Assembly (NCBI GenBank): GCA_035541435.1
Contig: DATKNL010000010.1
Location: 30,250-94,249 of the forward strand
From: Minisyncoccota bacterium
GTDB taxonomy: Bacteria; Patescibacteriota; Minisyncoccia; UBA6257; 2-01-FULL-56-20
Reading direction: 5' to 3'
DNA length: 64,000 bases
Under the pieces are notes generated by a model. It had not been told where the DNA came from, did not search any database, and was given only the letters and a program-made list of their open reading frames with translations. Within the stretch, counting starts at the first letter, position 1; every line of letters begins with the position of its first letter. Below are positions 8,602 to 60,163 of the stretch, in pieces. A program made the position numbers and the translations under genes.

Positions 8602-9184
8602 CCAGGGCTTTGACCGCCAGCTTTTTGCCGGCGCCGGGCTTCTTCGACGGCAGCACGACGACAAGCACGCCCTTCTCGGAAACGGCGCTCGCCTCGCTCG
8701 GATCGAACGCGGCGGGGAGATAGACTTTGCGATACAGGGTCCGCCATTTGATTTCCTGCTTGGCATAACGGCCCTTCTCGTCGTTGCCCTCGGGGGCGCC
8801 CGGGATGGGCGGGAGCGTCGGGCGCTTCTGCGTCACCTGGACGGTGACCGTGTTCGCCTCCTCGTCGATCACGAGATCGACGTCCTCTTTCGCGACGCCG
8901 CCGATCTGAAAGAAAAGCACCATGCGCGCATCGGATTGGAAGAGGTCGACATCGAGCGGCTCGGCGCCTTCGGGAAGCTGCTCCTTCGGCGGCTCCTGGG
9001 ATGCGGCCTGCGCGGCCGCGGCGTTCGCGTTCGCGGCGGCAGCCGGTGCGCCCGCGGGTGCGGGGACGGCGACGCGCTCGCCGGTTCCCTTGAACGAGAC
9101 GCTTTTCGCCGGCGCCTGCGCGGGTTCCGGCGGCGCGTCAACCTCGTTCAGCCTGCTCGACAGTTTTTGATAGAACGAAAGCAT
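8591..9184 (-). CDS. Hsp20/alpha-crystallin family small heat-shock protein
   Basis: 197 aa. Alpha-crystallin domain ...DVDLFQSDARMVLFFQIGGVAKEDVDLVIDEEANTVTVQV...YAKQEIKWRTLYRKVYLPAAFDPSEASAVSEKGVLVVVLPSKKP. Last 11 nt overlap the start of the cohesin gene. Confidence 0.8.
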   Translation of the reverse strand: MLSFYQKLSSRLNEVDAPPEPAQAPAKSVSFKGTGERVAVPAPAGAPAAAANANAAAAQAASQEPPKEQLPEGAEPLDVDLFQSDARMVLFFQIGGVAKEDVDLVIDEEANTVTVQVTQKRPTLPPIPGAPEGNDEKGRYAKQEIKWRTLYRKVYLPAAFDPSEASAVSEKGVLVVVLPSKKPGAGKKLAVKALDEK

Positions 9185-9213: not shown

Positions 9214-10944
9214 TCACCCCGTCCAATGGAACAGGAGGATCGAAAAATCTGTCAGATTGACCGTCCCGTCGCCGTTGAAGTCGGTTCCCGCGAAATCGGT
9301 GTTCCAATGGAAGAGCAGAATCGAAAAGTCGACGAGGTTCACCTTGCCGTCGCCGTTCACGTCGCCGATCAGACCCTTTGACGACGGATTCTTGCCGACG
9401 CCGAGATAGGCGGGGTTCGAATAGTTGCTGCTCCCGAAGCCCGCGAGCTCCGCGCGCGCCTTCACAAGGTAGGTGTCGACAGCGAATCCCTTCGTCGCGA
9501 GGTCGACGCTCCACGCACCCGCGCCGTTCGCGAGCGTCGTCGTCGTGACCGGATTCTGCGCGTTCGTCTGGCTGATGACGGCGAGCGTGACGAGCGAAAG
9601 CGGCGGCGCCGAACCCGCGATGATGACGTCCGACCCCGGCGATACCGTGCTCGTGGCGAGCGAGAGGCCGGGCGGCAGCAGGATGTTCGTCACGCTGTTC
9701 GTCGTGCCGAGCACCACCGTGAGCGTCGTCGTGTACGACGCGATCGCATCGCCCGCCGCATCCTCCTCGACGATCGTAAATGAATAGGTGCCTTGCGGAA
9801 GGGCCGGGATCGACACCGAAAAGATGCCGCCATCGCCCACCCGCGCCGTCATGATCTGTTTGCCGTCCTGCAGGATGCTGAGCGGCGTGCCCGGGACGCC
9901 GAGTCCTTTCAGGATGAGGCTCGGCTGCGGCGGCGGTGCCGGAAACGTGTCGCCGCCCCCGCCGCTCCCGCCACCCGTGCCGGGAAGCGCGACCGGACCG
10001 CCGCCCGTGCCGCCGCCCAGTCCCGTTCCCGTCGGATCGCCCGCCTTGAACTCGATCACGTAATCATTTGGATTCACGTTGCCGACGAAATCCATGCAGC
10101 GCACATAGATGTCATAGGTCGTCCCCTTCGCGAACGGTCCCATGAAGTTCGCGGTATGGAACGTACCGATCGACGTGTGCGCGAACCCGTTCGGCATCGC
10201 GTCATAGGCGACGCCCGACGACGTCGCATAACGGCACGTCGAATAGACGTCGGTGTTCACCGAGAGCAGCACGCCGTTCACGTTCGACGGGATCGTTCCC
10301 GACGGCATGCCGTTCGAAATGACCGCGGGGTTCACGCGGTCCTGGTTCACGTCGACGCCGACCGCCGGCAGGACGGCGGTCATCGCCGCGCCCTCGTCGA
10401 GCGGCGCGCCGCCGGCGTCATAGGTGTTCAAAAGGATGCGATAGGAGCCGGTCGAGCTCGGGTTCGTGATCTGGTCGATACCCTGGCCGCCGAAGGTCGC
10501 ATTCTGCCCGAGAAGGATCCGCACGTAGGAATTGGCCGGGATGCCGCCCCCCGACGAGAGCGTGACCGTCATCGGCCCCGTCGGCGCGCCGGCCGAAAAG
10601 CCGTCATGGGCCGCGTCGGGCGCCGCCGCAAGCGAACGGTCCGTGAAGTTGCCGATGGGCGACGTGGGCGATACGGCGATGTCCGCATCGCCGAAATCGA
10701 ACGAGGGATCGATCGAGAACGCATCGCCTTCGAACGTGATCACGATCGTGCCCGACGCCGGGATGCCGCTCGGGACGCCGAACACGATGCGGTGGTCCGC
10801 AACGGTCGACGGGCGCGAATCGGTCACGGTGTCGCTCACGAACGTGAGCCGCGCCGCGTGCGCGCCGTGCGCAAGCGCTAAAAAAACGGCTGCCGCAAGA
10901 CAGGTCGCCGTTACCGCGCGCGCTCGCCAGGTCGGGGTGTGCAC
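9214..10944 (-). CDS. Secreted protein with C-terminal tandem dockerin (type I) repeats
   Basis: Signal peptide MHTPTWRARAVTATCLAAAVFLALAHGAHA. C-terminus GDVNGDGKVNLVDFSILLFHWNTDFAGTDFNGDGTVNLTDFSILLFHWTG is a canonical duplicated Ca-binding dockerin segment. Gly-rich linker GGGTGGGPVALPGTGGGSGGGGD. N-terminal module VSDTVTDSRPSTVADHRIVF is shared with the gene at 12562-13680. Confidence 0.7.
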   Translation of the reverse strand: MHTPTWRARAVTATCLAAAVFLALAHGAHAARLTFVSDTVTDSRPSTVADHRIVFGVPSGIPASGTIVITFEGDAFSIDPSFDFGDADIAVSPTSPIGNFTDRSLAAAPDAAHDGFSAGAPTGPMTVTLSSGGGIPANSYVRILLGQNATFGGQGIDQITNPSSTGSYRILLNTYDAGGAPLDEGAAMTAVLPAVGVDVNQDRVNPAVISNGMPSGTIPSNVNGVLLSVNTDVYSTCRYATSSGVAYDAMPNGFAHTSIGTFHTANFMGPFAKGTTYDIYVRCMDFVGNVNPNDYVIEFKAGDPTGTGLGGGTGGGPVALPGTGGGSGGGGDTFPAPPPQPSLILKGLGVPGTPLSILQDGKQIMTARVGDGGIFSVSIPALPQGTYSFTIVEEDAAGDAIASYTTTLTVVLGTTNSVTNILLPPGLSLATSTVSPGSDVIIAGSAPPLSLVTLAVISQTNAQNPVTTTTLANGAGAWSVDLATKGFAVDTYLVKARAELAGFGSSNYSNPAYLGVGKNPSSKGLIGDVNGDGKVNLVDFSILLFHWNTDFAGTDFNGDGTVNLTDFSILLFHWTG

Positions 10945-10973: not shown

Positions 10974-11390
10974 TCAGGCGCCGCCGCCCGCCGCGGGTCC
11001 GCGGTCCTCATCGTGATTCGCCTCGCGCTCCGAACGTCGCCAGTCGAAATAGAAGTTGAGGCCGACGAGCAGCGCAAGGATGCCGACGATGACGATGAGA
11101 TAGCGCATGAGCGGCGACGATGCGGCCGCGCTCGAAGCCGCCGTGTCCGAGGCGAGCGCCTCCTTTTGCGCCTCGAGGTCGGCCTGCTCCATCTCGAGCT
11201 GGGTCTGCTTCGCATCGAGCTGGGCGTTCAGCGTGTTGTAGGGGTTCGGCTCGATGCCAAGCGTCACGCCGACCTGGGCGAGCATGCGTCCGGCCGTCGA
11301 CGACTCAAGCGCGCGGCTGCCGACGAAGCCGACGGCGATCAGTCCGATCGCCGCCATGCTGATGAAGACTCCGATGGCCTTGCGGAGCAT
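10974..11390 (-). CDS. Small membrane protein (two TM helices flanking a coiled-coil segment)
   Basis: 138 aa. TM1 IGVFISMAAIGLIAVGFVG, central QLDAKQTQLEMEQADLEAQKEALAS, TM2 YLIVIVGILALLVGLNFYF. 1-nt TGATG overlap with the upstream gene. Confidence 0.45.
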   Translation of the reverse strand: MLRKAIGVFISMAAIGLIAVGFVGSRALESSTAGRMLAQVGVTLGIEPNPYNTLNAQLDAKQTQLEMEQADLEAQKEALASDTAASSAAASSPLMRYLIVIVGILALLVGLNFYFDWRRSEREANHDEDRGPAAGGGA

Positions 11391-12508
11391 CAGCCAAAGA
11401 AGAAGAACAGGACGAGCAGGAAGACGATGGCGAAGATGGCGGTCGCGATAAGGATGAAGACGAGGCGCGAGAACGGCAGGCGGTCTTCGGCGAGGAACCG
11501 CTCCTCGGCCGAGGCGCCGCGGTCAGGGCGGCCCGACGTCATCGCGGCGACCCTGCGGCGCACATAGGCGCGCACGGACCAGACAAAGATGAGGACGAAG
11601 AACAGGATGCTCCCGAGGACGGCGATGATCGGGACGACCGGGATGATCCAGAACGAGACTTCGCGCGAGACCGTCTTCTGTCCCTGATCGCCGTAGGTGA
11701 GCGACATCACGGCGTCGAAACGGCCCATCATGAATCCGGTCCCCGTCCAATGCGCGGTGAAGCTGCGGTCGGTTCCCGGGAAGATCGCGGCGTTGCCGTC
11801 GTTCATGATCGCCTCGCCAACCTTCTGGCCGAACATGTTCATGATGTCGATCGGGCCGCGCGGACGAAGCAGCACGTTGCCGTCGTTGTGCGCGATCGCC
11901 GTAAACGTCACGTCGGGCGCCTGATAGAGCCCCTTGTCGGTGCTGAATTCCTGGATCTGCGCGTCTTCGGTCGCCTCGCCCGCGATGCGGAGGTCGATGA
12001 GCGATCCGACCTCATAGCCGATGCCCGTTCCCGTGAAGGCCGGCCGCTTGGCGCCGAGCGTCACGAAGATCGCGCCATAATGGCCGCCCGGAGCCGCGGT
12101 CTTCGGGACCGTGATCGTGAAGGGAACGACGGCGCTGCCGTTCGCGGGAATGGTGATGACGGGATTCGCGATCGAAACCCACGAGCTCAGGCCGTATTCG
12201 GGGACCGATGACGACGTGAAGACCGGCTGTCCGGTCGCCGTCATGTCCGATATGTTCTCGACGGTCACCGTGAACTGCTTCGCCGTCGGATCAGGGTTCG
12301 TCACCGTGATCGACGTCGAGAACGTGTCGCCCGGGTTGACGAGCTGCTCAAAAAGCGCTGGCTGGACTTTGATACCCGTTCCGACCGTCTGCGTTTGTGC
12401 GTGGGCAAGGGGGAGCGCGACCGCTGCGACGATGGCAATCGCCATCAGTCCTTTCAACGCGTTTTTCATGGTTTGCTTCATCGTATCACGAGAGTTCCCG
12501 GTCGACAA
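11390..12508 (-). CDS. Cell-surface protein, DUF916/CscA-like: signal peptide, ~250-aa domain, C-terminal TM anchor and charged tail (paralog 1 of 3)
   Basis: 372 aa. Signal ...AIAIVAAVALPLAHAQT. Motifs PGGHYGAIFV, NDGNVLLRPRGPI, TDRSFTAHWTGTG. C-terminal TM IIPVVPIIAVLGSILFFVLIFVW then basic tail. Same architecture and motifs as 13797-14912 and 14909-15949. Confidence 0.6.
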   Translation of the reverse strand: MSTGNSRDTMKQTMKNALKGLMAIAIVAAVALPLAHAQTQTVGTGIKVQPALFEQLVNPGDTFSTSITVTNPDPTAKQFTVTVENISDMTATGQPVFTSSSVPEYGLSSWVSIANPVITIPANGSAVVPFTITVPKTAAPGGHYGAIFVTLGAKRPAFTGTGIGYEVGSLIDLRIAGEATEDAQIQEFSTDKGLYQAPDVTFTAIAHNDGNVLLRPRGPIDIMNMFGQKVGEAIMNDGNAAIFPGTDRSFTAHWTGTGFMMGRFDAVMSLTYGDQGQKTVSREVSFWIIPVVPIIAVLGSILFFVLIFVWSVRAYVRRRVAAMTSGRPDRGASAEERFLAEDRLPFSRLVFILIATAIFAIVFLLVLFFFFG

Positions 12509-12561: not shown

Positions 12562-13680
12562 TTAGAAGACCGGGGTTGCGACGTAGATGAGGTTATTCGT
12601 GTAATCGTTGGCCGCAGGTTGCAGCGGGCTGATTTCGATGCGGAAGGCGACTTTCGCCGCGCCTACGTTCTGCGTCACGCCGTCAGCCGGACCGGTCCAG
12701 GCGAAGACCGTGAGCGTCGATGTCGGCTGGAAGCTGCCGGCGTAGAGCGGGGTCGACGTTCCGAAGGCCAGGGTGCCGCTTGCGTCGTCGCTCGTGATGC
12801 CGAAGTGGCCATAGGTGTTCGGGTTGTTGATCGTATTGGCCGGAGCCGCCCATGAGCTCGGAACGCTCGTCGCGTTCGCGTCGCGGAAGAGGTGGATCTT
12901 GAACCCTGTCTGGCTCGTGAGATCCTGGTCCTCATGCACCGTCACGGCGAACCCGTTCGCGGCGTTGGTCGTCACGTTCAGCTGTTGGCCAAGTTCGGCA
13001 TGGGTGTTTGGCGCGATCGTCCCGAATGGCAGCGACGTCGTCGCGGAGGCCCCGGTCGTCGTCGCCCCGTTGCCAAGCGTCGTGCTCGTCGCCAGGCCGC
13101 CGACGGTGAAGGTGAAGGTCGTCGCGACCGCCGCGGTCACGTTCACGCCGTTCACGATGGCTACGCGGGTATCGGCCGAGTTGAGCTGGGTTCCGTTGAT
13201 CCTGATGATATAGGAACCGGTACTCGTCGGATTCGTGATCTTGTTGTTGAGGACCTGCAGGGTGATCGTACCGGCGTTCACGGTGTTTCCTGCACAGACC
13301 GTAAACGTCAGCGCGTTCGTGCTGGTTGTCATGCTCACGCGGTTCGATCCCGCGCTGCAGCTGCTCACAATCGACATGCCGGTCGACGTCACATCGGCTA
13401 AGCCGACCGTTTGGACGCCGGTAAAGAGGCTGCCCGTCGGGTCGAAGGTATAAACGATGGTCTGCGTGGCGGTCGTGGAGGTCGAGTTCGTATAGACGAT
13501 CGTGTGATTCGCGGCAAAACCGGGGCGCGAATCGGACAACGTGTCGCTCACCTGGGTGAGGTTTACGGCATGCGCGACCGAAATGGCATGCAGCAGGGTC
13601 GTCCACGCGAGAATGCTGATCACCAACCCGGCGGCAACGGCGACCGTCAAATCTTTCTTGAGATACTTTTGGGAAACCAT
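12562..13680 (-). CDS. Thr-rich secreted protein, paralogous to 15949-17277, possible WxL-like surface protein
   Basis: Track ORF 12562..13731. Start chosen at ATG 13680 (MVSQKYLKKDLTVAVAAGLVISILAWTTLLHAISVAHA signal peptide); 13731 is the alternative. N-terminal VSDTLSDSRPGFAANHTIVY module shared with the dockerin protein. C-terminus ...LIYVATPVF parallels ...VVYVATPSY of the 15949 gene. Confidence 0.5.
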   Translation of the reverse strand: MVSQKYLKKDLTVAVAAGLVISILAWTTLLHAISVAHAVNLTQVSDTLSDSRPGFAANHTIVYTNSTSTTATQTIVYTFDPTGSLFTGVQTVGLADVTSTGMSIVSSCSAGSNRVSMTTSTNALTFTVCAGNTVNAGTITLQVLNNKITNPTSTGSYIIRINGTQLNSADTRVAIVNGVNVTAAVATTFTFTVGGLATSTTLGNGATTTGASATTSLPFGTIAPNTHAELGQQLNVTTNAANGFAVTVHEDQDLTSQTGFKIHLFRDANATSVPSSWAAPANTINNPNTYGHFGITSDDASGTLAFGTSTPLYAGSFQPTSTLTVFAWTGPADGVTQNVGAAKVAFRIEISPLQPAANDYTNNLIYVATPVF

Positions 13681-13796
13681 GTCTTTTGGGGAAAACGTAA
13701 GGACCTTTTTGGTTCTGTTCTTACCATTCATTATCTAAACAGATTGTAAACACCGCAAGGACCACTTATCCACAAGCCGTCAAGGGTCTTTCCCGA

Positions 13797-14912
13797 TCAC
13801 CGTCGTTTTCTCAGATCAACGACGTCGGAGGACTCCTCTTTATTATGTTTTTCATGCGGCGCGACCGCTTCCTGAGGCGACGGATGAGCCGGGGGCGGAA
13901 CGGGCGGAATGCCGGCGAGGCCGCCCCACTGCCCCATTTCCCGCATGAGGGTCCTCTTTATATAACGTCGCACGAAGATCACGAAGCAGACGATGACCGC
14001 AAGGAACCCGCCGACGTCCTCAACGACCTTCTTCCACGGCAGAACCCAGAACGTGATCGTCTGCGAAACCGTCTTCGACTGATCGCTCCCATAGGCAAGG
14101 GTGACGACCGCCGTATATTCGCCGATCCCCCACAGCGTCATCGGACCCTGCCACTCCGCGCCGAACCTTCTCGTGCTCGAAGGGAGGACGTAGCCGAGGT
14201 CGCGTCCCTGGTTGATGCTCACGCGCCCGGCTTCGTGGCCGAGCATCGTGTAGACCTCGATCTGTCCCGCGGGACGCAGGTGAACATTGCCGTCGTTCGC
14301 GAACCTGATCGTGAAGTTCACGTCGGGATCCGCATACCACGACCGGTCGGACGAGAATTCCTGGATGGCGCCCGATTCCTTCACGTCGCCCGACACGCTC
14401 ACGAAGATGAGCGCCGAGATATAGCTGCTCACGCCGACGAACGATCCGTTGCCTGACTTCGCCGCAGGCGGCGTGCCGATGAGGATCGCTGCGTAATGGC
14501 CGCCGGGCGACGCGTCCTTCGGGACGGTGACCGAAAACGGGACGTCGGCCGCCGTCCCCGGCGGGACGGTGACGGACGGCTCGCGGACCGTGATCCAGTT
14601 CGCAAGCTGATCGGTGTCGTTCGCGATGTTCGCAAGCGGCACGAACGTGCCGTGCCCCTGGTCGTCGGACGGCGCGAACCCGGCCGTGACGGCCCGCACG
14701 GTGAGACTCGACGTGTTCGTGTTCACGACCCTGATCGAACTCGACCACGAGTCGCCCGGACTCACGTTCAGCGTAAAGAACGGCGGCGTGATCGTGAGCG
14801 AAGTCGCGCCTTCGGATTGCGCGTGCGAGAGGAGCGGAGCGGCGCACGCTGCCGCCAGGGTGACGGCCGCGCACGATGCGAATATTTTTTTCACGGTCGA
14901 CGTCGTATTCAT
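13797..14912 (-). CDS. Cell-surface protein, DUF916/CscA-like (paralog 2 of 3)
   Basis: Start set at ATG 14912 (MNTTSTVKKIFASCAAVTLAAACAAPLLSHAQS signal). This gives an ATGA overlap with the stop of the upstream paralog, whereas the track's longer ORF would overlap it by 230 bp. Motifs PGGHYAAILI, NDGNVHLRPAGQIEVY, RRFGAEWQG. C-terminal TM FLAVIVCFVIFV plus a Pro-rich tail. Confidence 0.6.
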   Translation of the reverse strand: MNTTSTVKKIFASCAAVTLAAACAAPLLSHAQSEGATSLTITPPFFTLNVSPGDSWSSSIRVVNTNTSSLTVRAVTAGFAPSDDQGHGTFVPLANIANDTDQLANWITVREPSVTVPPGTAADVPFSVTVPKDASPGGHYAAILIGTPPAAKSGNGSFVGVSSYISALIFVSVSGDVKESGAIQEFSSDRSWYADPDVNFTIRFANDGNVHLRPAGQIEVYTMLGHEAGRVSINQGRDLGYVLPSSTRRFGAEWQGPMTLWGIGEYTAVVTLAYGSDQSKTVSQTITFWVLPWKKVVEDVGGFLAVIVCFVIFVRRYIKRTLMREMGQWGGLAGIPPVPPPAHPSPQEAVAPHEKHNKEESSDVVDLRKRR

Positions 14913-15949
14913 ATTCGTGTTCGTGTGCGCGATGTCCGATGCGCATAGGGAGGCCGCGGCGGTTCCGCATCGCGCGGCCCGCGAAGATCGACCACATCCC
15001 TGCGCTTCATGAGATGGGCGATCACGCTCTTCCGCCGATGGTGGCGCTTCAGATAGGACCGGTGCAGCGCGACCGCAACGATGATGACGAGCGCGAGCAG
15101 TCCCGCAAAGAGCGCGAGAAGTTTCTGCCACGGCATCACCCACACGAGCGCCGTATCCGCGAGCTGCGCATCGCGCGCGCCATAGGTCGCTTCGAGGCTC
15201 GCCTTATATTCGCCCATCCCCGAACCGCCGCCGTCCCATCGCGCGGTGAACGTCTTCGTGTCGCCCGGCGCGATCGCGACGCCCGAAGGGTTCGCGGGGA
15301 CCGATCCGAGCTCGTGCCCGATGTTGTCATAAAAGATGACCGATCCCGCGGGTGTCGTCACGACCGTGCCGTCGTTCCGGATCTGATAGCTTATGACGAC
15401 GGGAAATCCCGATGAAAAGCGCTTTTCGGGGCCGAATTGCACGAGCTGCAGGTCCTCTTTTGCATCCGAGGCAACGGTGAAGTTGACGAGCGTTTGCGGG
15501 GCTCCCGTGAGATGCTGCTCGGCTTCGTCCCTCGTGGAACCCTCGACGAAGGCGATGACCGCATGATAGTCGCCGGCGGTCGCATACGGGTTCACATTGA
15601 TCTCGACCGGCACCGTTTTCGATTCGCCCGGCGCGAAGATCATGGCCCCGCGCGTGACGCTGATCCAGTCGGCGAGCAGCGCGGGACGGTCCGATGTCGA
15701 GGGATCGGTGAACGGCTGGCTGCCGTCGGCCGTGAGCTCGTAGACCGACGCGAAGACGTTCACCTGATGATCGGTGACGTTCGTCACGGTGAGCGAATAG
15801 TCGGATATGTCGTGCGGCAATCCGTGGGCGTCGATCACCGCGGGCGTAACGGTGAGATCGGGAGCCGCATGGGCGACGGCGGCGCCCGCTCCGGGCAGGA
15901 TGCCGCTCGTCATGACCGCGACCGCGATTGCGATGAGGACGTTCTTCAT
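14909..15949 (-). CDS. Cell-surface protein, DUF916/CscA-like (paralog 3 of 3)
   Basis: Start set at ATG 15949 (MKNVLIAIAVAVMTSGILPGAGAAVAHA signal), with a 1-nt TGATG overlap with the upstream gene. Motifs AGDYHAVIAF, NDGTVVTTPAGSVIFYD, TKTFTARWDGGG. C-terminal TM LLALFAGLLALVIIVAVAL plus a basic tail. Confidence 0.6.
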   Translation of the reverse strand: MKNVLIAIAVAVMTSGILPGAGAAVAHAAPDLTVTPAVIDAHGLPHDISDYSLTVTNVTDHQVNVFASVYELTADGSQPFTDPSTSDRPALLADWISVTRGAMIFAPGESKTVPVEINVNPYATAGDYHAVIAFVEGSTRDEAEQHLTGAPQTLVNFTVASDAKEDLQLVQFGPEKRFSSGFPVVISYQIRNDGTVVTTPAGSVIFYDNIGHELGSVPANPSGVAIAPGDTKTFTARWDGGGSGMGEYKASLEATYGARDAQLADTALVWVMPWQKLLALFAGLLALVIIVAVALHRSYLKRHHRRKSVIAHLMKRRDVVDLRGPRDAEPPRPPYAHRTSRTRTRI

Positions 15950-17277
15950 CAGTATGATGGCGTCGCGACGTAGACGACATTGTCGCCATAGGAACCGTTC
16001 ACCTGGGTCGCGCCCGCCTGGATGCGATAGACGACGTCCACCGTGCTGCTCGACACCGGCACCGATCCATAGCCGATCTCGGCGGGCGTCGACGTGAGCG
16101 CCGCATAGGTGTCGTTCGCCGCGAAGCGCGTCGAGCCGCCGGCGAGCACCGGACTGCCCGGATGATAGCCGTAGCATGCGGTCGACGTCGCAAGGCATGC
16201 GCTCGTCCACGGCAGCGGGCTCACGTTCGTTCCCGCGACGCCGGGAATCGAATGCCCCTGCCCATCGGTGAGTGGCGAATCCTGATAGGCATAGATCTCA
16301 TAGCCGTTGCCTGCGTTCGTCGTGATCGAGAGCCGCTGCGCGCCCGCGACGCTCGTCGCGATGACGAGCGTTCCGAACGAGATCGAGGTCGCCGTCGTCG
16401 AGACGCCGGTCACGACGCCGTTCGTGCTCGTCCCTTGCGGGAGGCCGCTCACGCTGAACGTGAGCGCCGCGCCGGCGGTGAGCAGGCTCGGATAGGATGA
16501 CGTGGCATAGAGCGGCGCCGGCACGCCGGTGTCCGCATAGACGGGCCTGAAGAAATAGGTCGTGCCCGCGCTCGGCGCGATCCCCTGGACGGTGAATTCG
16601 AATTCCGCGGTGCTGCTCGCCGCCTGGGTGAACGTGCTCGTGCTCGTGCCCGACGTGTTGTGCGTGCCGCAGCCCGTGCCCGAGCCGGCCGCGCACGGCC
16701 CGCTCGTCGAGAGCACCGTCGACGATACGACGGCGTTGTCCGTGCCGCCCCCGGCGACCGACGCGTAGCACCACGTCGACGACGCCACGCAGCTGCCGAT
16801 GTCCGTCACGGCCGAGACGGCGGCGGAAAAATCGGAATAGGTCGAGTATTGCAGCGCGTACTTCACGTTGTCGGCGCCGACGCCGCCCGTCTCGCGGATG
16901 TCGATCCGCAGCTTGATCGCCTGGTTCGAGGCGATGTTCGACGGCGCGACGTTTTCTGCGGCAAGGGGACTCACGGGCTTCTCGTCGGCAGCGTCGCTGT
17001 ACCATCGCCATGCGTAGGACCGCGGCGCGAAGTCCGCATAGTTCTCCGGTCCCGCGTGATCAAGAAAGCTCGCGCTCGAGGCGTTCCCATTCACGAACGG
17101 CGTCGCGCCGCTCAGGACCTGGAAGTCCGTCGACGAGGACGATCCCGAAAAGAATCCGACATACGAATCCTCGACAAGAAAATGCGTGCTCGAAGCGATG
17201 TCGGCGCGCGACAGGAACGGAGCGGCAAGCGCAAGCACCGCCGCAGCTCCGAGTATGCCGAGCGTCCGCCGTGTCAT
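15949..17277 (-). CDS. Thr/Ser-rich secreted protein, paralog of 12562-13680
   Basis: 442 aa. Signal MTRRTLGILGAAAVLALAAPFLSRA. Ser/Thr/Gly/Ala-rich. C-terminal ...YRIQAGATQVNGSYGDNVVYVATPSY. Confidence 0.55.
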   Translation of the reverse strand: MTRRTLGILGAAAVLALAAPFLSRADIASSTHFLVEDSYVGFFSGSSSSTDFQVLSGATPFVNGNASSASFLDHAGPENYADFAPRSYAWRWYSDAADEKPVSPLAAENVAPSNIASNQAIKLRIDIRETGGVGADNVKYALQYSTYSDFSAAVSAVTDIGSCVASSTWCYASVAGGGTDNAVVSSTVLSTSGPCAAGSGTGCGTHNTSGTSTSTFTQAASSTAEFEFTVQGIAPSAGTTYFFRPVYADTGVPAPLYATSSYPSLLTAGAALTFSVSGLPQGTSTNGVVTGVSTTATSISFGTLVIATSVAGAQRLSITTNAGNGYEIYAYQDSPLTDGQGHSIPGVAGTNVSPLPWTSACLATSTACYGYHPGSPVLAGGSTRFAANDTYAALTSTPAEIGYGSVPVSSSTVDVVYRIQAGATQVNGSYGDNVVYVATPSY

Positions 17278-17794: not shown

Positions 17795-18967
17795 TCATGG
17801 CGTTACCGATGCCGGATCCACGGGCGGCACGGATGTCGCGTCGACGTCCGGCGGCGGAGCCGTCGACGAGGCCGTCGTATCGATGGATGCGCCCAGGTCC
17901 TGCACGTCCGGCGCTGACGCCGCAGATGACGCCGCGTCAGGCGTGGTCGAGGCGTCGGCTGACGGGGCAGCGACATCCGCGGCCGCGGGGGTCGTCGCGT
18001 CAGGCGAAACGTCAGACGTCACGTCGGGAACCGCCGCGGGTGCCGGCGCTGCCGGAACGACGACTCCCGTGCCGCCTGAAAATCCCCCGCCGGACGATTC
18101 CCCGCCCGACGCCGGGGCGGCCGCATAGGTCTGGATGATGAGCCAGTCGAAAGCGACCGGTTGCGACTGCGGAGTCACGACGCCCACATGGAACCCGACG
18201 CCATCCAGTTTCTGCGTCACGGTGAGCGGCGCCTGCGATTCGGTCGTCGGCGTTATGAAAATCTTCGACGACGACGCGACCGCGGTGTTCGCAATGAAGA
18301 TGTCGCCCGCGCCGGTCGCGAGCACCGCCTCGCCGGTCAGCTGGTTCTCGCCGTGCGGCAGCGTGAGCGATCCGCCGGGAAGGATCGCGAGGTTTTTTGC
18401 GAACACGTTCACGGCCGCGACGACCGTCGCCTTCACGGAATTCGCGACCACCGTCGCGAAGGACTGCACGGCATCGCCCGCGTCGGCGACGATGCCGAAG
18501 AACTGGGCGATGGCCGCGTCGAGCAGCGACATGTCGTCGGGCGCCGCCGCAACGGACGAGGTGTCGATCGCGATCGTCGCCGTCGCGGTGACGACCGGGA
18601 CCGGCTCGGCGAAGATCACCGGCTGCACGGGCGCCACGCCCTGCGCGGCCACGGACGGAATCGGATTGCCCGCGGAATCCTCGTCATAGGCCTGCACGTC
18701 GAACGTCCCGCCCTGGCGGTCCGCATCGGGCACCTCGATCGCATAGGCGTATCCCCCATTCGCGCATTCCGGATCGCTGCTCCCCCAGATCGATCCGTCC
18801 GTCGCGTTCCTTATGACGACGAGCACGAACCGCGACGAGCACGAGCCCGCGATCGAAAGCATTCCCGATCCGGCATCGAACGAGACTGCGGAGGTCGCTG
18901 CGCGGATGGCGGCGGCAGGCGCGATGAGTGCCGCTGCGGCGGCGAGGATGGCGATGAATTTTTTCAT
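17795..18967 (-). CDS. Secreted hypothetical protein, Ala/Thr/Pro/Asp-rich C-terminus
   Basis: Track ORF 17795..18994. Start placed at ATG 18967 (MKKFIAILAAAAALIAPAAAIRA signal peptide), 2 bp after the stop of the upstream gene. Confidence 0.5.
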   Translation of the reverse strand: MKKFIAILAAAAALIAPAAAIRAATSAVSFDAGSGMLSIAGSCSSRFVLVVIRNATDGSIWGSSDPECANGGYAYAIEVPDADRQGGTFDVQAYDEDSAGNPIPSVAAQGVAPVQPVIFAEPVPVVTATATIAIDTSSVAAAPDDMSLLDAAIAQFFGIVADAGDAVQSFATVVANSVKATVVAAVNVFAKNLAILPGGSLTLPHGENQLTGEAVLATGAGDIFIANTAVASSSKIFITPTTESQAPLTVTQKLDGVGFHVGVVTPQSQPVAFDWLIIQTYAAAPASGGESSGGGFSGGTGVVVPAAPAPAAVPDVTSDVSPDATTPAAADVAAPSADASTTPDAASSAASAPDVQDLGASIDTTASSTAPPPDVDATSVPPVDPASVTP

Positions 18968-18968
18968 G

Positions 18969-21359
18969 TTATTCGCGACTTCCCAGATAGACATAGGCGA
19001 TGCGGTGGACGGCCGCGGCGGTCGTGAGCGTCGTCACGGTATTGAACACGCCGAGGTTCGTCGCGCTGCTCGGGATGTTGGTAGACTTCACCGTCTTCAC
19101 ATAAGCCCCGCCATTCGTCGCAACCTCGCAGGTGAGCTGCCCCGGCGTCGACGCATCGAGGAGGATGTCGTAATAGGTGCTCGTCGTCACGGTGACGCCG
19201 GTGTTCACATAGCTGATCGACGTGCCGTCGCCCGACCCGCACTGCCAGGTGGTGTCGTTGGCCGACGTCGAATAGCGGAGGCCGATGAAGACCGTCGTCG
19301 ACGCGCTCGTCGTCGCATCGGTCCCCATGAGCGCAACGGAGCTCAGCGCCACCCAGATGCGGCGGCTCGCGATCGACGTGTCGGTCCTGATTCGCGTCGC
19401 AAACCGCGGCGTATAGCGCGCCTCGGTCTGCGTGAACGCCTGCGTCTCACCGCCCGCGGCGCCGTTCGTCGCGCCGGTCGTCCACTGCACGTAGAAATCC
19501 TCGGCCTGCGCGCTTGCGGCGGCGGTTCCCGTCGCCGTCGGTGCGACCATGTTCACGTTCGTGAGCGTCGTCGCCGTCGTGCCGAGCGGGGCCCAATAGC
19601 CCCAACGCTTCTCGAAGAAGATCGGCTGCCAATCCATGTTGGTCGGCACGCAGTCATACCATGTGCCACCCTGGTCGCAGCGGAAGGAGCCCGTGCTCGA
19701 GCTGTAATACATCGCGCCGTTGAAGCCGGTCGGATCGCCGGCGTCGGCCTTCACGTCGAGGCCGAGCAGCGTCGGCACCGTTCCCGCGGCGCCGTTGTCG
19801 CCGATCTTGATCTTGTTGTTGAGCGTATCGGCCTGAAAAAGCGTATTGGTGCCGCTGGCATTCTCAATGAGGAACGCGGCCGACGTGTCGTTCGACGGCT
19901 GAAAGACCGCATTGCCGGAACTGTTGATCGCAAAGACCGTCGACGAGGCGTCGTTCACCTGGAACGCGTTCCCCGTGCCGAAATTCTGCACGATGAGCGC
20001 CGATCCCGCCACGTTTGCGCCGGCATAGATCGAAACCGTGCTCGTCGACTGCGTCGAGGTCGGCGTGTTCACGATGGCAAGCGCCGTTCCCGTGGCGTTC
20101 TGCGTGAGAAAGAGGCCCGTCCCGGCGGCATTCTGCAGGATGGTCATGCCGCCCGTGACCGACGGGCTCGTGAGTGCGGGCGAGGTGAGCGTCTTGTTGG
20201 CAAGCGTCTGCGAAAAGTTCGCGAGCGCGACCGTGTCGGTTCCCGTCCCGAAATCAGGGATGGTGAGCGCCTCGCCGATCGTCGGATTCCAGCTCAGCGT
20301 TCCCGTCGCGCCCGTCCCCCGGAACACGAACTGGCTCGAGGTCGCCGTCGCCTGCAGCATGCTGCCGATCACGCTGCTCGCCGCGCGAAAGATGCCGCTC
20401 GACGCGATGAACGTGTTTGCGGAAAAGAACTGGATCGCACCCGTTCCGCCGCCGCCCTGAAGCGTGAGCGTGTTCGATCCCGTCGCGTTGATCTGCGGAT
20501 TCGCGTCGCCGAGCATGAGGCTGCCGTTCGCAAGTACGGGGATCTGGCTGCCGGTCGCGTTCTGCGACGGCGTGAACCCGCCGACCGAATATGAATTGAT
20601 GGCGTAGCCCGAAGCCACGATCCGGGGACGGGGCGCAAGGTGCTCGAACACCTCGCTTCCGCCCGTGCAGCTCGGATCGACCTTGGTCGCCACTGAGACA
20701 TCGAGATAGCTCGTGTCGTTGCTTTGGAAGTCATAGGTCAGGGCGTCGCCGCCGGCGCTTGTGTCGCCGATCCCCACGTTGAACACCCCGTTCTGGACGT
20801 TCACGGTCATGATCGACGCCGTTGCGGCCGGCCACAGCTGGGAACCGCCCGACGAGGCGTTGAAAATGGAGAAGCGAAAGCAATATGCGGTTCCAGCGCC
20901 GCCAAGCAGGTTGCCTCCTGAATCGAATAGGCGGCCCTGATAGCTCAGGATCTTGGGAACCCCCACAGCCGCATGGGCCACCGGGGCCTGCATGATGTTC
21001 GCGATGAGCGCGTAAAGAAGGAATAGGCAAAAAGCCACAAGGAGGGCTATGAATATATAGAGGAGTTTTCTCGTGAACCCGATCAGCCGCTCTTCGGTCG
21101 TGTTGGCGGCAATCCACCGGCGGGTCCGGGCACGAATCCCCGTAATCCTGCCCATTTTGCCAGCCGGAGACTTGCTCATGGACAGATAAGCATTCAGGGC
21201 CTCTTCGGTCGTCATCCAGGCCACGTTCAGATAGATCTGCTTGCCCTCCAATTTGCCCTTCCTTATGAGCTGTCCGAGGTAGTCCTGGCTGTATCCCGAG
21301 ATTTTAGACGCCTCCTTGAGGGTTATGTATTTTTTGCCGCTTTTTTCGATATTTTCCAT
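18969..21359 (-). CDS. Large membrane-anchored protein with N-terminal cytoplasmic MerR/excisionase-type HTH, one TM and ~650-aa Thr/Gly/Ser/Ala-rich extracytoplasmic region
   Basis: 796 aa. N-terminal KYITLKEASKISGYSQDYLGQLIRKGKLEGKQIYL (HTH_17-like). TM LLYIFIALLVAFCLFLLYALIA. Downstream low-complexity region with many NxT/S sites. First gene after the AT-rich divergent promoter region at 21360-21549. Confidence 0.6.
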   Translation of the reverse strand: MENIEKSGKKYITLKEASKISGYSQDYLGQLIRKGKLEGKQIYLNVAWMTTEEALNAYLSMSKSPAGKMGRITGIRARTRRWIAANTTEERLIGFTRKLLYIFIALLVAFCLFLLYALIANIMQAPVAHAAVGVPKILSYQGRLFDSGGNLLGGAGTAYCFRFSIFNASSGGSQLWPAATASIMTVNVQNGVFNVGIGDTSAGGDALTYDFQSNDTSYLDVSVATKVDPSCTGGSEVFEHLAPRPRIVASGYAINSYSVGGFTPSQNATGSQIPVLANGSLMLGDANPQINATGSNTLTLQGGGGTGAIQFFSANTFIASSGIFRAASSVIGSMLQATATSSQFVFRGTGATGTLSWNPTIGEALTIPDFGTGTDTVALANFSQTLANKTLTSPALTSPSVTGGMTILQNAAGTGLFLTQNATGTALAIVNTPTSTQSTSTVSIYAGANVAGSALIVQNFGTGNAFQVNDASSTVFAINSSGNAVFQPSNDTSAAFLIENASGTNTLFQADTLNNKIKIGDNGAAGTVPTLLGLDVKADAGDPTGFNGAMYYSSSTGSFRCDQGGTWYDCVPTNMDWQPIFFEKRWGYWAPLGTTATTLTNVNMVAPTATGTAAASAQAEDFYVQWTTGATNGAAGGETQAFTQTEARYTPRFATRIRTDTSIASRRIWVALSSVALMGTDATTSASTTVFIGLRYSTSANDTTWQCGSGDGTSISYVNTGVTVTTSTYYDILLDASTPGQLTCEVATNGGAYVKTVKSTNIPSSATNLGVFNTVTTLTTAAAVHRIAYVYLGSRE

Positions 21360-21549
21360 ATCTCGGGGGTCGATATTTCACAAAACTCGGGCTCCGATAT
21401 TTACGTATTCATTATATAAAATGGCGCATTTGACTAACTGTGGATAAGAATTTTTAATAGGATAATTTTGAGCAAAATAGGCAATAGTTTTTGACAGAAC
21501 GCCCGCCCTCCTATAGAAAGAAGGGAGCTACTATCTCACGGAGGTTCTC
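21360..21549. promoter_or_regulatory. AT-rich divergent promoter region between the surface-protein array (-) and the YeiH-like gene (+)
   Basis: AT content is about twice that of flanking DNA. Plus strand: TTGACA (21491-21496), 15-nt spacer, TATAGA, GGAGG SD 6 nt before ATG 21550. Minus strand carries TATATAAT. Direct repeat CGATATTT(C/A)AC twice. TGTGGATAA (21439-21447) is a perfect DnaA-box 9-mer. Confidence 0.4.
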
Positions 21550-21649
21550 ATGAACCAAATCGGCGTTCCCGCATCCCGGCTGTCCACCGACTGGTGGGCG
21601 GTCATTGCGGCCTTTGCGGCAACCATCCTCATAAAACTGGGGGTGCTCC

Positions 21650-22690
21650 ATGTCGGCTGGTAGGCTGATGAGGGTTTTTCCCGGCGTCGCCCTGATGTTC
21701 GGCATCGGCATCCTCGGAAAGCTCATCGAGCAGTCGATCGACGTTATCGGCAAGGCGCACGGCTGGCACCTGCCGAAAATCGAATATGTCCTCTGGGCGA
21801 TCCTGCTCGGGCTCCTCATAAGGAACCTCCGCGTCGTCCCCCGGATGTGTGACCCGGGAATCGCAACCTATGATTTCTGGCTCAAAGCCGGCATCGTCCT
21901 CCTCGGAACGCGCTTCCTGCTCGGCGATATCGCCAAGCTCGGACCGCTCGTTCTTGCGCTGGTGGTCATCGAAATCCTCTTTTCGATCGCCGTCATGACG
22001 CTCATCGGACGCTGGTTCGGCCTCGGCGGCAAACTGACGTCCCTCCTGGCCGTCGGATCCGGCATCTGCGGAGTTTCGGCCATCATCGCAACCGAAGGCG
22101 CGATCGAAGCCGAAGAAAAGGATGCGGCCCTTGCCATCGCCGTGATCCTTGCGGTCGGGGCGGTGGCGCTCTTCCTTTTCCCGTTCTTCGGACACGTCTT
22201 GCACATGCCGGACCAGTGGTTCGGGGTATGGGCTGGCCTCGCCGTCGACAACACGGCCGAAGCCACGGCAGCGGGAGCGATCTTCTCGGATGCCGCGGCG
22301 AAGACCGCGGTGCTCGTGAAGACCACCCGCAATGCGATGATCGGATTCGTCGTCCTCGCCTATGCGGTCTATTGGGCGAACAAGGGCATGGCGAAACGGA
22401 TCGAGCGTCGGGGACGGTTCCTGTGGGAAAAGTTCCCCAAGTTCGTGCTCGGCTTTCTCGCGGTTTCGGTCGCCGCAAGCGCGCACGCATTCAGCAAGGG
22501 CGAGCTCGCAAGCCTAGCAAACCTCTCGAGGTGGGCGTTCCTCATCACCTTCGCCGGCGTCGGCCTTCGGACCGACATCCGCGCGATGATGAAGCAGGGA
22601 ACGCGGCCCCTGCTCGTCGGCCTGCTCGGCGAACTCCTGATAGCCGCCTCGACCCTCACGATGGTCGCGGTGGCGTCGGCCTTCGCCTGA
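21650..22690 (+). CDS. YeiH/UPF0324 family membrane protein (putative sulfate exporter family); probable N-terminal segment at 21550-21663 is in a different frame
   Basis: 346 aa, multi-TM, alignable by eye to E. coli YeiH from about residue 35. A hydrophobic 37-aa ORF (MNQIGVPASRLSTDWWAVIAAFAATILIKLGVLHVGW) with a strong SD starts at 21550, is in frame -1 relative to the main ORF and ends at 21663, next to a G5 run. Confidence 0.7.
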   Translation: MSAGRLMRVFPGVALMFGIGILGKLIEQSIDVIGKAHGWHLPKIEYVLWAILLGLLIRNLRVVPRMCDPGIATYDFWLKAGIVLLGTRFLLGDIAKLGPLVLALVVIEILFSIAVMTLIGRWFGLGGKLTSLLAVGSGICGVSAIIATEGAIEAEEKDAALAIAVILAVGAVALFLFPFFGHVLHMPDQWFGVWAGLAVDNTAEATAAGAIFSDAAAKTAVLVKTTRNAMIGFVVLAYAVYWANKGMAKRIERRGRFLWEKFPKFVLGFLAVSVAASAHAFSKGELASLANLSRWAFLITFAGVGLRTDIRAMMKQGTRPLLVGLLGELLIAASTLTMVAVASAFA

Positions 22691-39858: not shown

Positions 39859-40338
39859 ATGATCGCTCTCGGCATCGATCCAGGCACGCGACGAGTCGGC
39901 TTCGGGGTCGTCAGGCAGGAAGGCAACGAAGCCCGCCTCATCAAAGCCGACATCGTGCCCGTTTCAAGCTCGAACGACGTCGACGCGCTTTTCGAGATCA
40001 AGGCGTGCATCGACGGACTGATCCGGCGTCACAAACCCGACGTCATAGCGGTCGAAAAGCTTTTCTTCTCGAAAAACCGGACGACGGCGATCGCCGTAGC
40101 GCAGGCCCGCGGGGTCATCCTGCTTGCCGCACGCGAGGGCGGCGTACGCATCAGGGAATACGGACCGAACGAAGTGAAGATCGGCGTCACGGGTTATGGC
40201 GCAGCCGACAAGAAGGCGGTGCTTAAAATGGTGCGCCTCATCCTCAAAAAACCGGCCCTTTCAGTGATCGATGATGCGAGTGACGCACTCGCGCTCGCGA
40301 TCATCGCATGCGGCGACCGCACTTATCCACATCCGTAA
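39859..40338 (+). CDS. ruvC: Crossover junction endodeoxyribonuclease RuvC
   Basis: MIALGIDPGTRRVGFGVV...VIAVEKLFF...DDASDALALAI catalytic acidic residues. Confidence 0.9.
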   Translation: MIALGIDPGTRRVGFGVVRQEGNEARLIKADIVPVSSSNDVDALFEIKACIDGLIRRHKPDVIAVEKLFFSKNRTTAIAVAQARGVILLAAREGGVRIREYGPNEVKIGVTGYGAADKKAVLKMVRLILKKPALSVIDDASDALALAIIACGDRTYPHP

Positions 40339-60065: not shown

Positions 60066-60163
60066 TTACCTCTATTATAGCTCTGACTTCCTCTTCTGTA
60101 TTAGGGCTTTATCCACACAAAACGCTTATTTTTCCGATCATTCCGAATGTCCGGGCGCTGAAA

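Follow-up and report, generated by a model that had tools for sequence, protein, structure and literature searches.

A helix-turn-helix membrane protein, fused to a fibre-type surface protein and placed beside a conserved twin palindrome, heads a surface-protein array in a Minisyncoccota bacterium

The stretch of DNA analysed here (64,000 nucleotides of contig DATKNL010000010.1 from a Minisyncoccota bacterium, referred to as the 64-kb window) carries an array of co-directional genes for secreted and membrane proteins, which runs on the minus strand down to about position 700. It is headed by an open reading frame (ORF) of 796 amino acids (aa) plus a stop codon, which starts with ATG and was called as a real gene. 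The identical gene was also called on an independent 158.7-kb metagenome contig from ENA, and the order of the genes in the array is the same in related contigs. The closest named relative of the 796-aa protein is from a metagenome-assembled genome of Minisyncoccia (Patescibacteria, also known as the candidate phyla radiation (CPR)). A first-pass annotation, made from the letters of the window, had described the ORF as the first gene of an array, which the co-directional genes for secreted and membrane proteins downstream confirm, and as a fusion of a cytoplasmic helix-turn-helix (HTH) domain to a transmembrane (TM) helix and a large extracellular domain. The parts of the protein and the elements in front of its gene are given in Table 1.

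Table 1. Features of the 796-aa gene and its upstream region. Positions are those of the 64-kb window; AF2, AlphaFold2.
Feature	Position	Strand	Evidence
Whole ORF: HTH-TM leader protein fused to fibre-type surface protein	18969..21359	-	gene calls, 7 fused homologues
Winged HTH, residues 11-62 (beta-alpha1-alpha2-beta-hairpin-alpha3), MerR/excisionase (HTH_17) type	21174..21329	-	profiles, AF2, Foldseek
Basic juxtamembrane linker, residues 63-98, predicted helix 70-85	21066..21173	-	AF2 secondary structure
TM helix, residues 99-120, homologous to the helix of stand-alone HTH-TM proteins; predicted to replace the fibre signal-peptide h-region	21000..21065	-	alignments
Junction, residues 121-130, NIMQAPVAHA: HTH-TM tail and retained signal-peptide c-region	20970..20999	-	AxA, predicted cut A130/A131
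N-terminal fibre domain (cell-proximal, conserved), residues 131-345, first residues AVGVPKILSYQGRL	20325..20969	-	about 90 homologues
Putative shaft, residues 346-570, beta-rich, ends in D..K.D.GDPTG..GA.YY.S....FRC.....W..C.	19650..20324	-	conservation
C-terminal tip, residues 571-796, predicted ConA-like lectin/glucanase-type beta-sandwich	18972..19649	-	AF2, Foldseek
Proximal 17-bp palindrome ATATCGACCCCCGAGAT on the gene strand, abuts ATG, candidate operator	21360..21376	.	motif scan
Distal 17-bp palindrome, reads ATATCGGAGCCCGAGTT on the gene strand, candidate operator; starts of the two copies are 24 nt apart	21384..21400	.	motif scan
-10-like hexamer TATAAT, followed after 10 nt by the distal palindrome	21411..21416	-	cross-locus comparison
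DnaA-box-like 9-mer TTATCCACA, 22 nt upstream of the -10	21439..21447	-	motif scan

The N-terminal domain was assigned by profile searches and structure prediction. Pfam HTH_17 (PF12728; curated cut-off 27 bits) matched the query alone with 15.8 bits over the full protein (E 0.017) and 19.3 bits over residues 1–130 (E 0.0014), and the excisionase-type HTH family TIGR01764 ('excise'; curated cut-off 28.8 bits) matched with 16.4 bits. At the level of the family, HTH_17 matched 52 of 54 members at E≤0.1, with a best E of 8e-7, and its cut-off was exceeded in more distant relatives (35.6 bits for P0223, 40.7 for P0229 and 29.4 for P0339). The alignment of the 54 relatives over residues 1–130 has 18 invariant columns, all in the motif YITLKEAxKxxGYxxDYxGQLIRKGKxxGKQxYxNVAWxTT; the remainder varies freely. 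The AF2 model of the domain obtained from this alignment has block-mean pLDDT (predicted local distance difference test) values of 83–95, with strands (E) and helices (H) at E11–13, H14–21, H25–33, E39–43, E47–51 and H52–62. The best Foldseek matches of the model in the PDB were BldC, mycobacteriophage Xis, TraN, RacA, RdfS and proteins of the MerR family, with template-modelling scores of 0.6–0.8 (normalised to the target) and a root-mean-square deviation of about 2 Å over about 50 residues. The HTH_17-type motif read in the first pass thus stands at the level of the family and of the fold, with the query alone under the cut-off, and the call is solid because the 18 invariant columns, the HTH_17 matches across the family and the predicted fold come together. 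Overall, on family-level profiles and fold, the domain is a genuine winged helix of the MerR/excisionase type on which purifying selection is very strong, and the alternative of a vestigial HTH was rejected on the invariant columns. A second copy of the HTH module was looked for within the 64-kb window and none was found.

Residues 99–120 form a single strongly hydrophobic segment, LLYIFIALLVAFCLFLLYALIA (Kyte-Doolittle value of 3.0), in agreement with the one TM helix that had been noted. The 20 residues before the helix contain five Lys or Arg, compared to one after it. The comparative argument for the topology is stronger than this count: in about 90 homologues the domain that follows the helix (the fibre domain) lies directly behind an ordinary cleavable Sec signal peptide. 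Six Cys residues of the ectodomain (C160, C231, C561, C570, C707 and C744) are invariant or at least 90% conserved and presumably form three disulphide pairs. Because of the signal peptides in front of the same domain in the homologues and the six conserved Cys, the ectodomain must, as judged from these comparisons, lie outside the cell, with the HTH and the N-terminus in the cytoplasm. The cytoplasmic location proposed for the N-terminus is therefore supported by the homologues, the Cys residues and the distribution of Lys and Arg alike.

A search with residues 1–130 alone returned 189 proteins and, among the 120 matches listed, nearly all were 100–200 aa long. In this stand-alone form (120–185 aa), the HTH is followed by a linker, one TM helix and a tail of 4–54 aa. 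The stand-alone protein is present at 79 of 80 species-representative genome loci, and at the remaining one, L008 (which is P0005), it is fused as in the window. Many of the stand-alone genes share their contigs with fibre homologues that are without an HTH. The gene right after the HTH-TM gene codes for a fibre of this family at 36 of the 80 loci; at most of the others it codes for a protein of 330–1900 aa with a TM helix or signal peptide, often with an overlap of 4 nt. At the one split junction that was read, in L001, the 125-aa HTH-TM gene (P0124) overlaps the gene for a 699-aa fibre (P0011) by 4 nt, and the fibre starts with a signal peptide of its own, MKKTIMIFTVILIVFAGALAERAFA/GVGVP (a slash marks the predicted cut).

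The fused N-terminus was found in seven full-length homologues, P0001–P0006 (65–69% identity) and the more divergent P0015. Homologues with the same fusion, for which the first-pass annotation had proposed a search, do exist and are rare (one of the 80 species-level loci is fused as in the window), and its description of the HTH as fused to the ectodomain is literally true but captures a rare, derived state of parts that are separate genes at 79 of the 80 loci. When the mature regions were placed in a tree, the fused proteins clustered and the split forms were basal, which fits a single old fusion that would have been kept while the sequences diverged to 65–69% identity. By these comparisons the 796-aa protein is most simply read as a lineage-specific, derived in-frame fusion of two neighbouring genes.

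The junction itself is clean. In the fused proteins the HTH-TM protein is kept almost to its C-terminus (...ALIANIMQAP) and is followed by the last residues of the fibre signal peptide with the AxA motif. The site of the query reads AHA/AVGVPK and the six fused orthologues have VQA, VHA, VHA, AHA, AKA and AHA; small residues are found at -1 and -3 in all seven aligned fused proteins (query and P0001–P0006), in register with the AxA/xxGVPK of the unfused fibres. In the fusion event, the first gene would have lost its stop codon and the fibre signal peptide its n- and h-regions, and the TM helix of the HTH protein would now serve as signal-anchor for the fibre, with the AHA/A site retained. Since only the n- and h-regions of the fibre would have been lost, the topology stays consistent. 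The fused form has an n-region of 98 aa and an h-region of 22 aa, with the AxA site 10 residues past the h-region, whereas Sec signal peptides have a short n-region and some 10–15 residues in the h-region. Signal peptidase I probably cuts after Ala130, as suggested by the retained motif, which would yield the same two products as the split genes.

The ectodomain (666 aa, residues 131–796) has a biased composition (14.3% Thr, 12.2% Ala, 11.3% Gly and 10.1% Ser), but an entropy of 3.2–4.0 bits in 40-aa windows. On these values and on its conserved domains, the idea of a low-complexity ectodomain of 650 aa was rejected. Residues from about 131 to 345 are common to the approximately 90 homologues, and the C-termini beyond them differ, with Peptidase_S74 (5 of 37), LVIVD, YadA_head, Gly_rich_2 or Ig-like domains. 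NCBIfam NF053851 (Bdello_MAT_N) matched residues 128–235 of the query weakly (E 1.4e-4, 21.7 bits against a cut-off of 60) and matched 5 of 37 family members at all; the block-mean pLDDT of the AF2 model at residues 141–240 was 66–81. The shaft, modelled as a monomer, was of low AF2 confidence and we make no claim on its fold; its matches in BFVD, a collection of viral structures, include phage tail-repeat and tropism-determinant proteins. The tip was modelled with block-mean pLDDT values of 58–88 at residues 651–760, and its Foldseek matches in the PDB include PL-14 alginate lyase (E 7e-5), SO2946, legume lectins, GH16 and galectin-8; in BFVD, the tip matched ConA-like and SO2946-like phage proteins. 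For the ectodomain as a whole, the BFVD matches to phage tail-repeat, tropism-determinant and ConA-like fibre proteins had E down to 3e-9. As modelled, residues 131–796 are a mosaic fibre-type adhesin in which a shaft links the conserved cell-proximal domain to a ConA-like lectin tip, and the fibre is probably trimeric.

Alignment of the regions upstream of the HTH genes yielded an inverted repeat of 17 bp, ATCTCG-N5-CGAGAT. Position 7 is mostly A and position 11 mostly T, so that the true arms are 7 nt around a 3-nt centre (ATCTCGA-N3-TCGAGAT). The palindrome was counted with at most one mismatch in the region from -250 to +90 of the HTH gene at the 80 loci, and was found near the gene at 73 of them; the 27 kb of upstream region hold 116 matches and the remaining 769 kb of flanks hold 2, an enrichment of about 1600-fold. 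Two copies are usual, with start-to-start distances of 31–32 nt (22 cases) or 24–25 nt (6 cases). A -10-like hexamer precedes the first palindrome by 4 nt (16 loci), 9–11 nt (24 loci) or 17–18 nt (7 loci), and with this fixed position the sites fall on, or just past, the point where transcription is expected to begin. The -10 box emerged only when loci were compared; a simple sigma-70 scan of 18800–21700 gave no -35/-10 pair. In a reverse test, the exact 17-mer ATCTCGACCCYCGAGAT was searched against metagenome contigs. Twenty-one of 120 occurrences lie directly upstream of a gene of the HTH family, always in the correct orientation, and five of these 21 genes code for proteins with tandem HTH domains. 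The other 99, mostly in high-GC contigs (mean GC 0.62 versus 0.45) and with no HTH gene nearby, were taken as chance matches. Within the window, the only tandem pair of palindromes is that at 21360–21400; a match with one mismatch at 33317 was rejected as a second target, as it is solitary and lies inside an ORF of 1044 aa. The promoter region 21360–21549, suggested earlier as the target of the HTH, thus contains the twin palindromes, which are conserved at 73 of 80 loci and stand as a strong candidate target.

The DnaA-box-like 9-mer upstream of the -10 box is a separate observation. The perfect sequence TTATCCACA occurs four times in the window, where 0.27 are expected, at 21439–21447 (-), 13766–13774 (+), 40323–40331 (+) and 60109–60117 (+). 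In many related loci, the form TTRTCCACA or its reverse complement (GGGGATAAC/TGTGGATAA) precedes the -10 box of the HTH gene by 21–22 or 29–30 nt, and this form is about 6.5-fold over-represented in the related loci L001–L083 overall (69 against 10.6 expected). It could be a site for DnaA or another activator, or a lineage-specific promoter element.

The module is not confined to small proteins. An exhaustive profile search with the HTH family returned 5134 clusters at E≤1e-3 and 941 at E≤1e-10, and 39 of the 137 newly returned top matches are proteins of 250–4161 aa. Most of these 39 have two tandem copies of the HTH, a TM helix at about residues 150–220 and a giant ectodomain, and thus the layout of HTH, TM helix and large ectodomain recurs in the phylum. 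In the tandem-HTH proteins of 500–4161 aa (P0223, P0228, P0245, P0285, P0325 and others), the ectodomain opens with the conserved segment WQNPQNVQGxPDV...FSExNSAVY, and some of the giant proteins have MAM, MG2 or PKD domains. P0015 (L205 1882-4776) is a second, more divergent fused form of 964 aa with LVIVD repeats. It retains both the TM helix of the HTH protein and the core of the fibre signal peptide, with a charged loop of 19 aa between them; simple rules would place its fibre inside the cell, and a read-through artefact is possible. The layout of promoter and palindromes at this locus is as in the window, and the palindrome abuts ATGGAAAAT. P0179 (197 aa) is without the TM helix; its HTH and juxtamembrane region run straight into a C-terminal dockerin, which resembles the one in the array protein 9214–10944, and the protein may reflect a large deletion of the array between the two genes.

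Several of the genes downstream in the array of the window have recognisable products. The second gene was listed from 18994, overlapping the end of the first; its start is more likely the ATG at 18967, which would give a typical signal peptide (MKKFIAIL...). This ATG is one base past the stop codon of the first gene, which implies a tight coupling of the two. Its product (17795–18994, -) matches the C-terminal domain of K1 capsule-specific polysaccharide lyase weakly (E 2e-4, 22.2 versus 27 bits), a further element beside the fibre that resembles phage tailspikes. Proteins 13797–15143, 14909–16210 and 11390–12508 (all -) resemble the WxL-interacting protein/DUF916 peptidoglycan-binding domain, with borderline Pfam scores (27.2 and 25.7 against 27.3) and a C-terminal TM helix, and recall the layout of the WxL surface-protein clusters of Gram-positive bacteria. 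A dockerin protein (9214–10944, -; Dockerin_1 at the C-terminus, E 9e-9) is encoded adjacent to a cohesin protein (6769–8766, -; Cohesin E 1.4e-10, C-terminal TM helix). By their domains the two look like a cohesin-dockerin pair, which could assemble surface proteins on the membrane. The paralogous secreted proteins 15949–17277 (-) and 12562–13731 (-) had no Pfam match; they have similar C-termini (...NVVYVATPSY and ...NLIYVATPVF), and the shared motif may be a sorting or anchoring signal.

We consider it slightly more likely than not, and the best explanation of these data, that the HTH-TM protein is a membrane-tethered autoregulator of the surface array, which in this lineage is fused to the fibre. 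Residues 1 to about 128 correspond to the conserved leader protein of surface-protein operons of Patescibacteria (Minisyncoccota). The tethered HTH, probably as a dimer, would bind both 17-bp palindromes, which start 4–18 nt after the -10 box and overlap the transcription start; binding would autoregulate the whole array, and the position of the sites at the transcription start makes repression the simplest sign. The operon headed by the HTH gene would be the sole or main target. The regulator would be made in a fixed ratio with the fibre, from coupled or overlapping genes or, in the window, as one polypeptide, and with such a ratio the level of regulator in the membrane would report the amount of surface protein made.

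A number of observations weigh against this interpretation. The HTH score of the query alone is below the cut-offs of both Pfam and TIGRFAM, and when PDB sequences were searched with a profile built on the HTH-TM alignment, nothing significant came up, only noise from the TM helix (G-protein-coupled receptors, gp41) and a marginal match to 6g1t (E 0.47). The full-length AF2 model is poor, with a mean pLDDT of 53. Divergent stand-alone members are also charged after the TM helix, and for these the positive-inside rule by itself gives an ambiguous answer. The TM helix of the fused form has 22 residues compared to 15–20 in the unfused signal peptides and the AxA motif lies 10 residues beyond it, so cleavage may be inefficient. 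A factor other than the HTH protein could bind the palindromes. Because they are situated within the 5' untranslated region (UTR) or where it begins, they could also act as RNA, and symmetric double substitutions (8 of 36 copies with two mismatches) are as compatible with a stem in RNA as with an operator for a dimer.

The HTH on the palindromes might instead act as a tether between DNA and membrane, holding the operon by the Sec machinery and aiding the co-transcriptional or co-translational export of very large proteins, analogous to the anchoring of DNA to the cell pole by RacA, which is among the structural matches. This proposal draws on the same operator evidence as autoregulation, and would account for the fusion of the module, often as a tandem pair, to surface proteins of 500–4161 aa in many lineages and for the large secreted or membrane proteins that are almost always encoded after it. 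The overlap of the operator with the transcription start is, however, the classic position of a repressor, and we regard tethering as the principal function as rather unlikely; tethering and regulation are compatible and not mutually exclusive.

A sensing role, in which an uncleaved ectodomain senses contact with the host or envelope and signals through the TM helix to the HTH, like a one-component regulator of the ToxR/CadC type, is the model suggested by the first-pass annotation. A DNA-binding domain, one TM helix and an outside domain make up a known class of transmembrane regulators (PMC10269533), fusions of the HTH to giant ectodomains recur, and the long TM helix of 22 residues may resist signal peptidase. 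Nevertheless, 79 of 80 species have the HTH-TM protein without the ectodomain and with a tail of 4–54 aa, so that its function would not need the ectodomain; in addition, the AxA site is conserved at the junction, and the ectodomain is a fibre-type adhesin common to about 90 proteins with plain signal peptides. From the earlier proposal of a sensing regulator of the array we therefore keep the tethered HTH with its candidate target in the promoter, and consider the giant ectodomain quite unlikely as the sensor that drives it.

We assign a similarly small likelihood to the palindromes being RNA hairpins of the 5' UTR that control translation or stability, with the HTH as a protein-protein module (as in RodZ) or an export-targeting extension of the signal peptide. 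The palindromes follow the -10 box and precede the start codon, the proximal one ends 0–8 nt before the ATG, at the position of a ribosome-binding site, and the 8 symmetric double substitutions among the 36 two-mismatch copies would fit a stem; covariation of the arms is, however, uninformative as a test of RNA versus DNA, as symmetric changes would be expected of a dimer operator too. At 16 loci only 4 nt separate the -10 box from the first palindrome, and a transcript would be without part of the left arm. Most arm variants of copies with at most one mismatch break the pairing (for example, 24 with A.G at positions 3/15), both orientations of the spacer are found (67 C-rich and 43 G-rich), the 5' UTR in the window is not unusually stable (z = -1.0), and an Rfam search of the promoter and 5' UTR gave no match. 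The arm sequence itself, beyond its pairing, is conserved across orders, and with an invariant HTH beside an invariant palindrome a cognate pair is the simplest reading. Finally, an artefact of assembly, sequencing or gene calling, for which the prevalence of the split arrangement and the topologically odd P0015 with its two hydrophobic segments might be invoked, is very improbable given that a clean in-frame junction, with a single TM helix and AxA, recurs unchanged in layout in seven proteins (query and P0001–P0006; 65–69% identity), the origin of the fused sequences from JGI, ENA, NCBI and Logan assemblies, and the presence of P0005 on 18 contigs and of the window gene on an independent one.

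Membrane-tethered autoregulation allows a further, speculative step, which we hold to be improbable on balance: the signal-anchor of the adhesin would itself be a transcription factor, and each fibre exported through Sec and cut by signal peptidase would leave behind one membrane-tethered HTH 'stub' that binds the twin palindromes and throttles its own operon, so that the cell counts its exported fibres. If true, close coupling of the genes would do the job of stub counting in the split-gene relatives, and the pair of HTH-TM protein and palindrome would be a phylum-wide, dedicated device for the cis-acting control and membrane tethering of large, probably host-attaching, surface proteins of Patescibacteria.

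Patescibacteria have tiny genomes with few regulators and a host-attached lifestyle that probably relies on surface proteins, and to our knowledge almost nothing is known about their gene regulation. Membrane-bound transcription regulators are a known class, as is the fold type of the HTH. Our literature searches on HTH_17 in CPR bacteria, on HTH/TM surface proteins of Patescibacteria and on giant DNA-binding proteins of CPR bacteria found no description of the HTH-TM family. Three elements thus appear to be undescribed: the tail-anchored HTH_17-type family as leader gene of surface-protein operons of Patescibacteria, its conserved partner of twin palindromes, and the repeated fusion to fibres and giant surface proteins, including the proposed use of a regulator's TM helix as signal-anchor of an adhesin. 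A widely conserved candidate regulator-operator pair at the head of adhesin and surface-protein operons bears on the control of the attachment apparatus, and offers a natural case in which to study how a factor held at the membrane locates one target next to the gene that encodes it. In the window, the fused form serves as a Rosetta-stone link between regulator and fibre, and one small domain with one 41-bp stretch of DNA provides a testable entry point.

Among known systems, BldC, the Xis and RdfS proteins of phages and integrative and conjugative elements, TraN of pIP501 and the N-domain of RacA have a DNA-binding fold of the same type and size as the query HTH, and RacA couples DNA binding to a membrane or pole anchor, as is proposed for the protein described here. 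Proteins of the BldC/Xis type are soluble and, unlike this family, none is tail-anchored at the head of a surface-protein operon; BldC and Xis bind cooperatively to direct repeats, in contrast to the 7-3-7 inverted repeats that are the candidate sites of this family. MerR, CueR, BmrR, NmlR and CbpM share with the query an N-terminal winged HTH followed by a long helix, and their targets are palindromic; structural alignments to CbpM and NmlR reach 90–113 columns. The MerR family has a coiled-coil dimerisation helix and an effector domain, neither of which is present in the query with its basic linker and TM helix (Kyte-Doolittle 3.0), and MerR operators lie in an over-long -35/-10 spacer of 19–20 bp, whereas the candidate sites lie 4–18 nt downstream of the -10.

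RodZ is bitopic with a cytoplasmic HTH, like the query, and its HTH binds a protein (MreB) rather than DNA. It differs in having an HTH of the XRE type and no known conserved palindrome beside its gene. In the scans of the query and the family, RodZ_C was not found, HTH_3 matched only weakly (7 of 54 members) and no RodZ or XRE family was significant.

For the ectodomain, the nearest parallel is provided by the mosaic adhesive trimer (MAT) fibres of Bdellovibrio, in which a constant cell-proximal domain carries swapped tips (PMC10769870). As in MAT and phage tail fibres, a beta-rich domain right after the signal peptide, exchangeable tips and an S74 chaperone in a subset are found in the family of the query. 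In contrast, the sequence match to MAT is far under the cut-off (21.7 against 60 bits), the query is without S74, and the signal peptides of MAT fibres are plain.

Transmembrane transcription regulators, with a DNA-binding domain and at least one TM segment in one protein, are a common class in which single-pass members are the most frequent (PMC10269533), and the query combines a DNA-binding domain and a TM segment in one polypeptide. HTH_17, MerR and Patescibacteria are unmentioned in the text of that survey. HigX of Caulobacter was set aside as an unrelated membrane factor of the LytTR type, and Trans_reg_C gave no match in the scans of the query or the family. ToxR, TcpP, CadC and BcrR regulate from the membrane, as we propose for the query; the ToxR family combines an OmpR-type winged HTH with a periplasmic sensor, whereas the HTH here is of the HTH_17 type and its usual form, with a tail of 4–54 aa, has almost nothing outside the cell.

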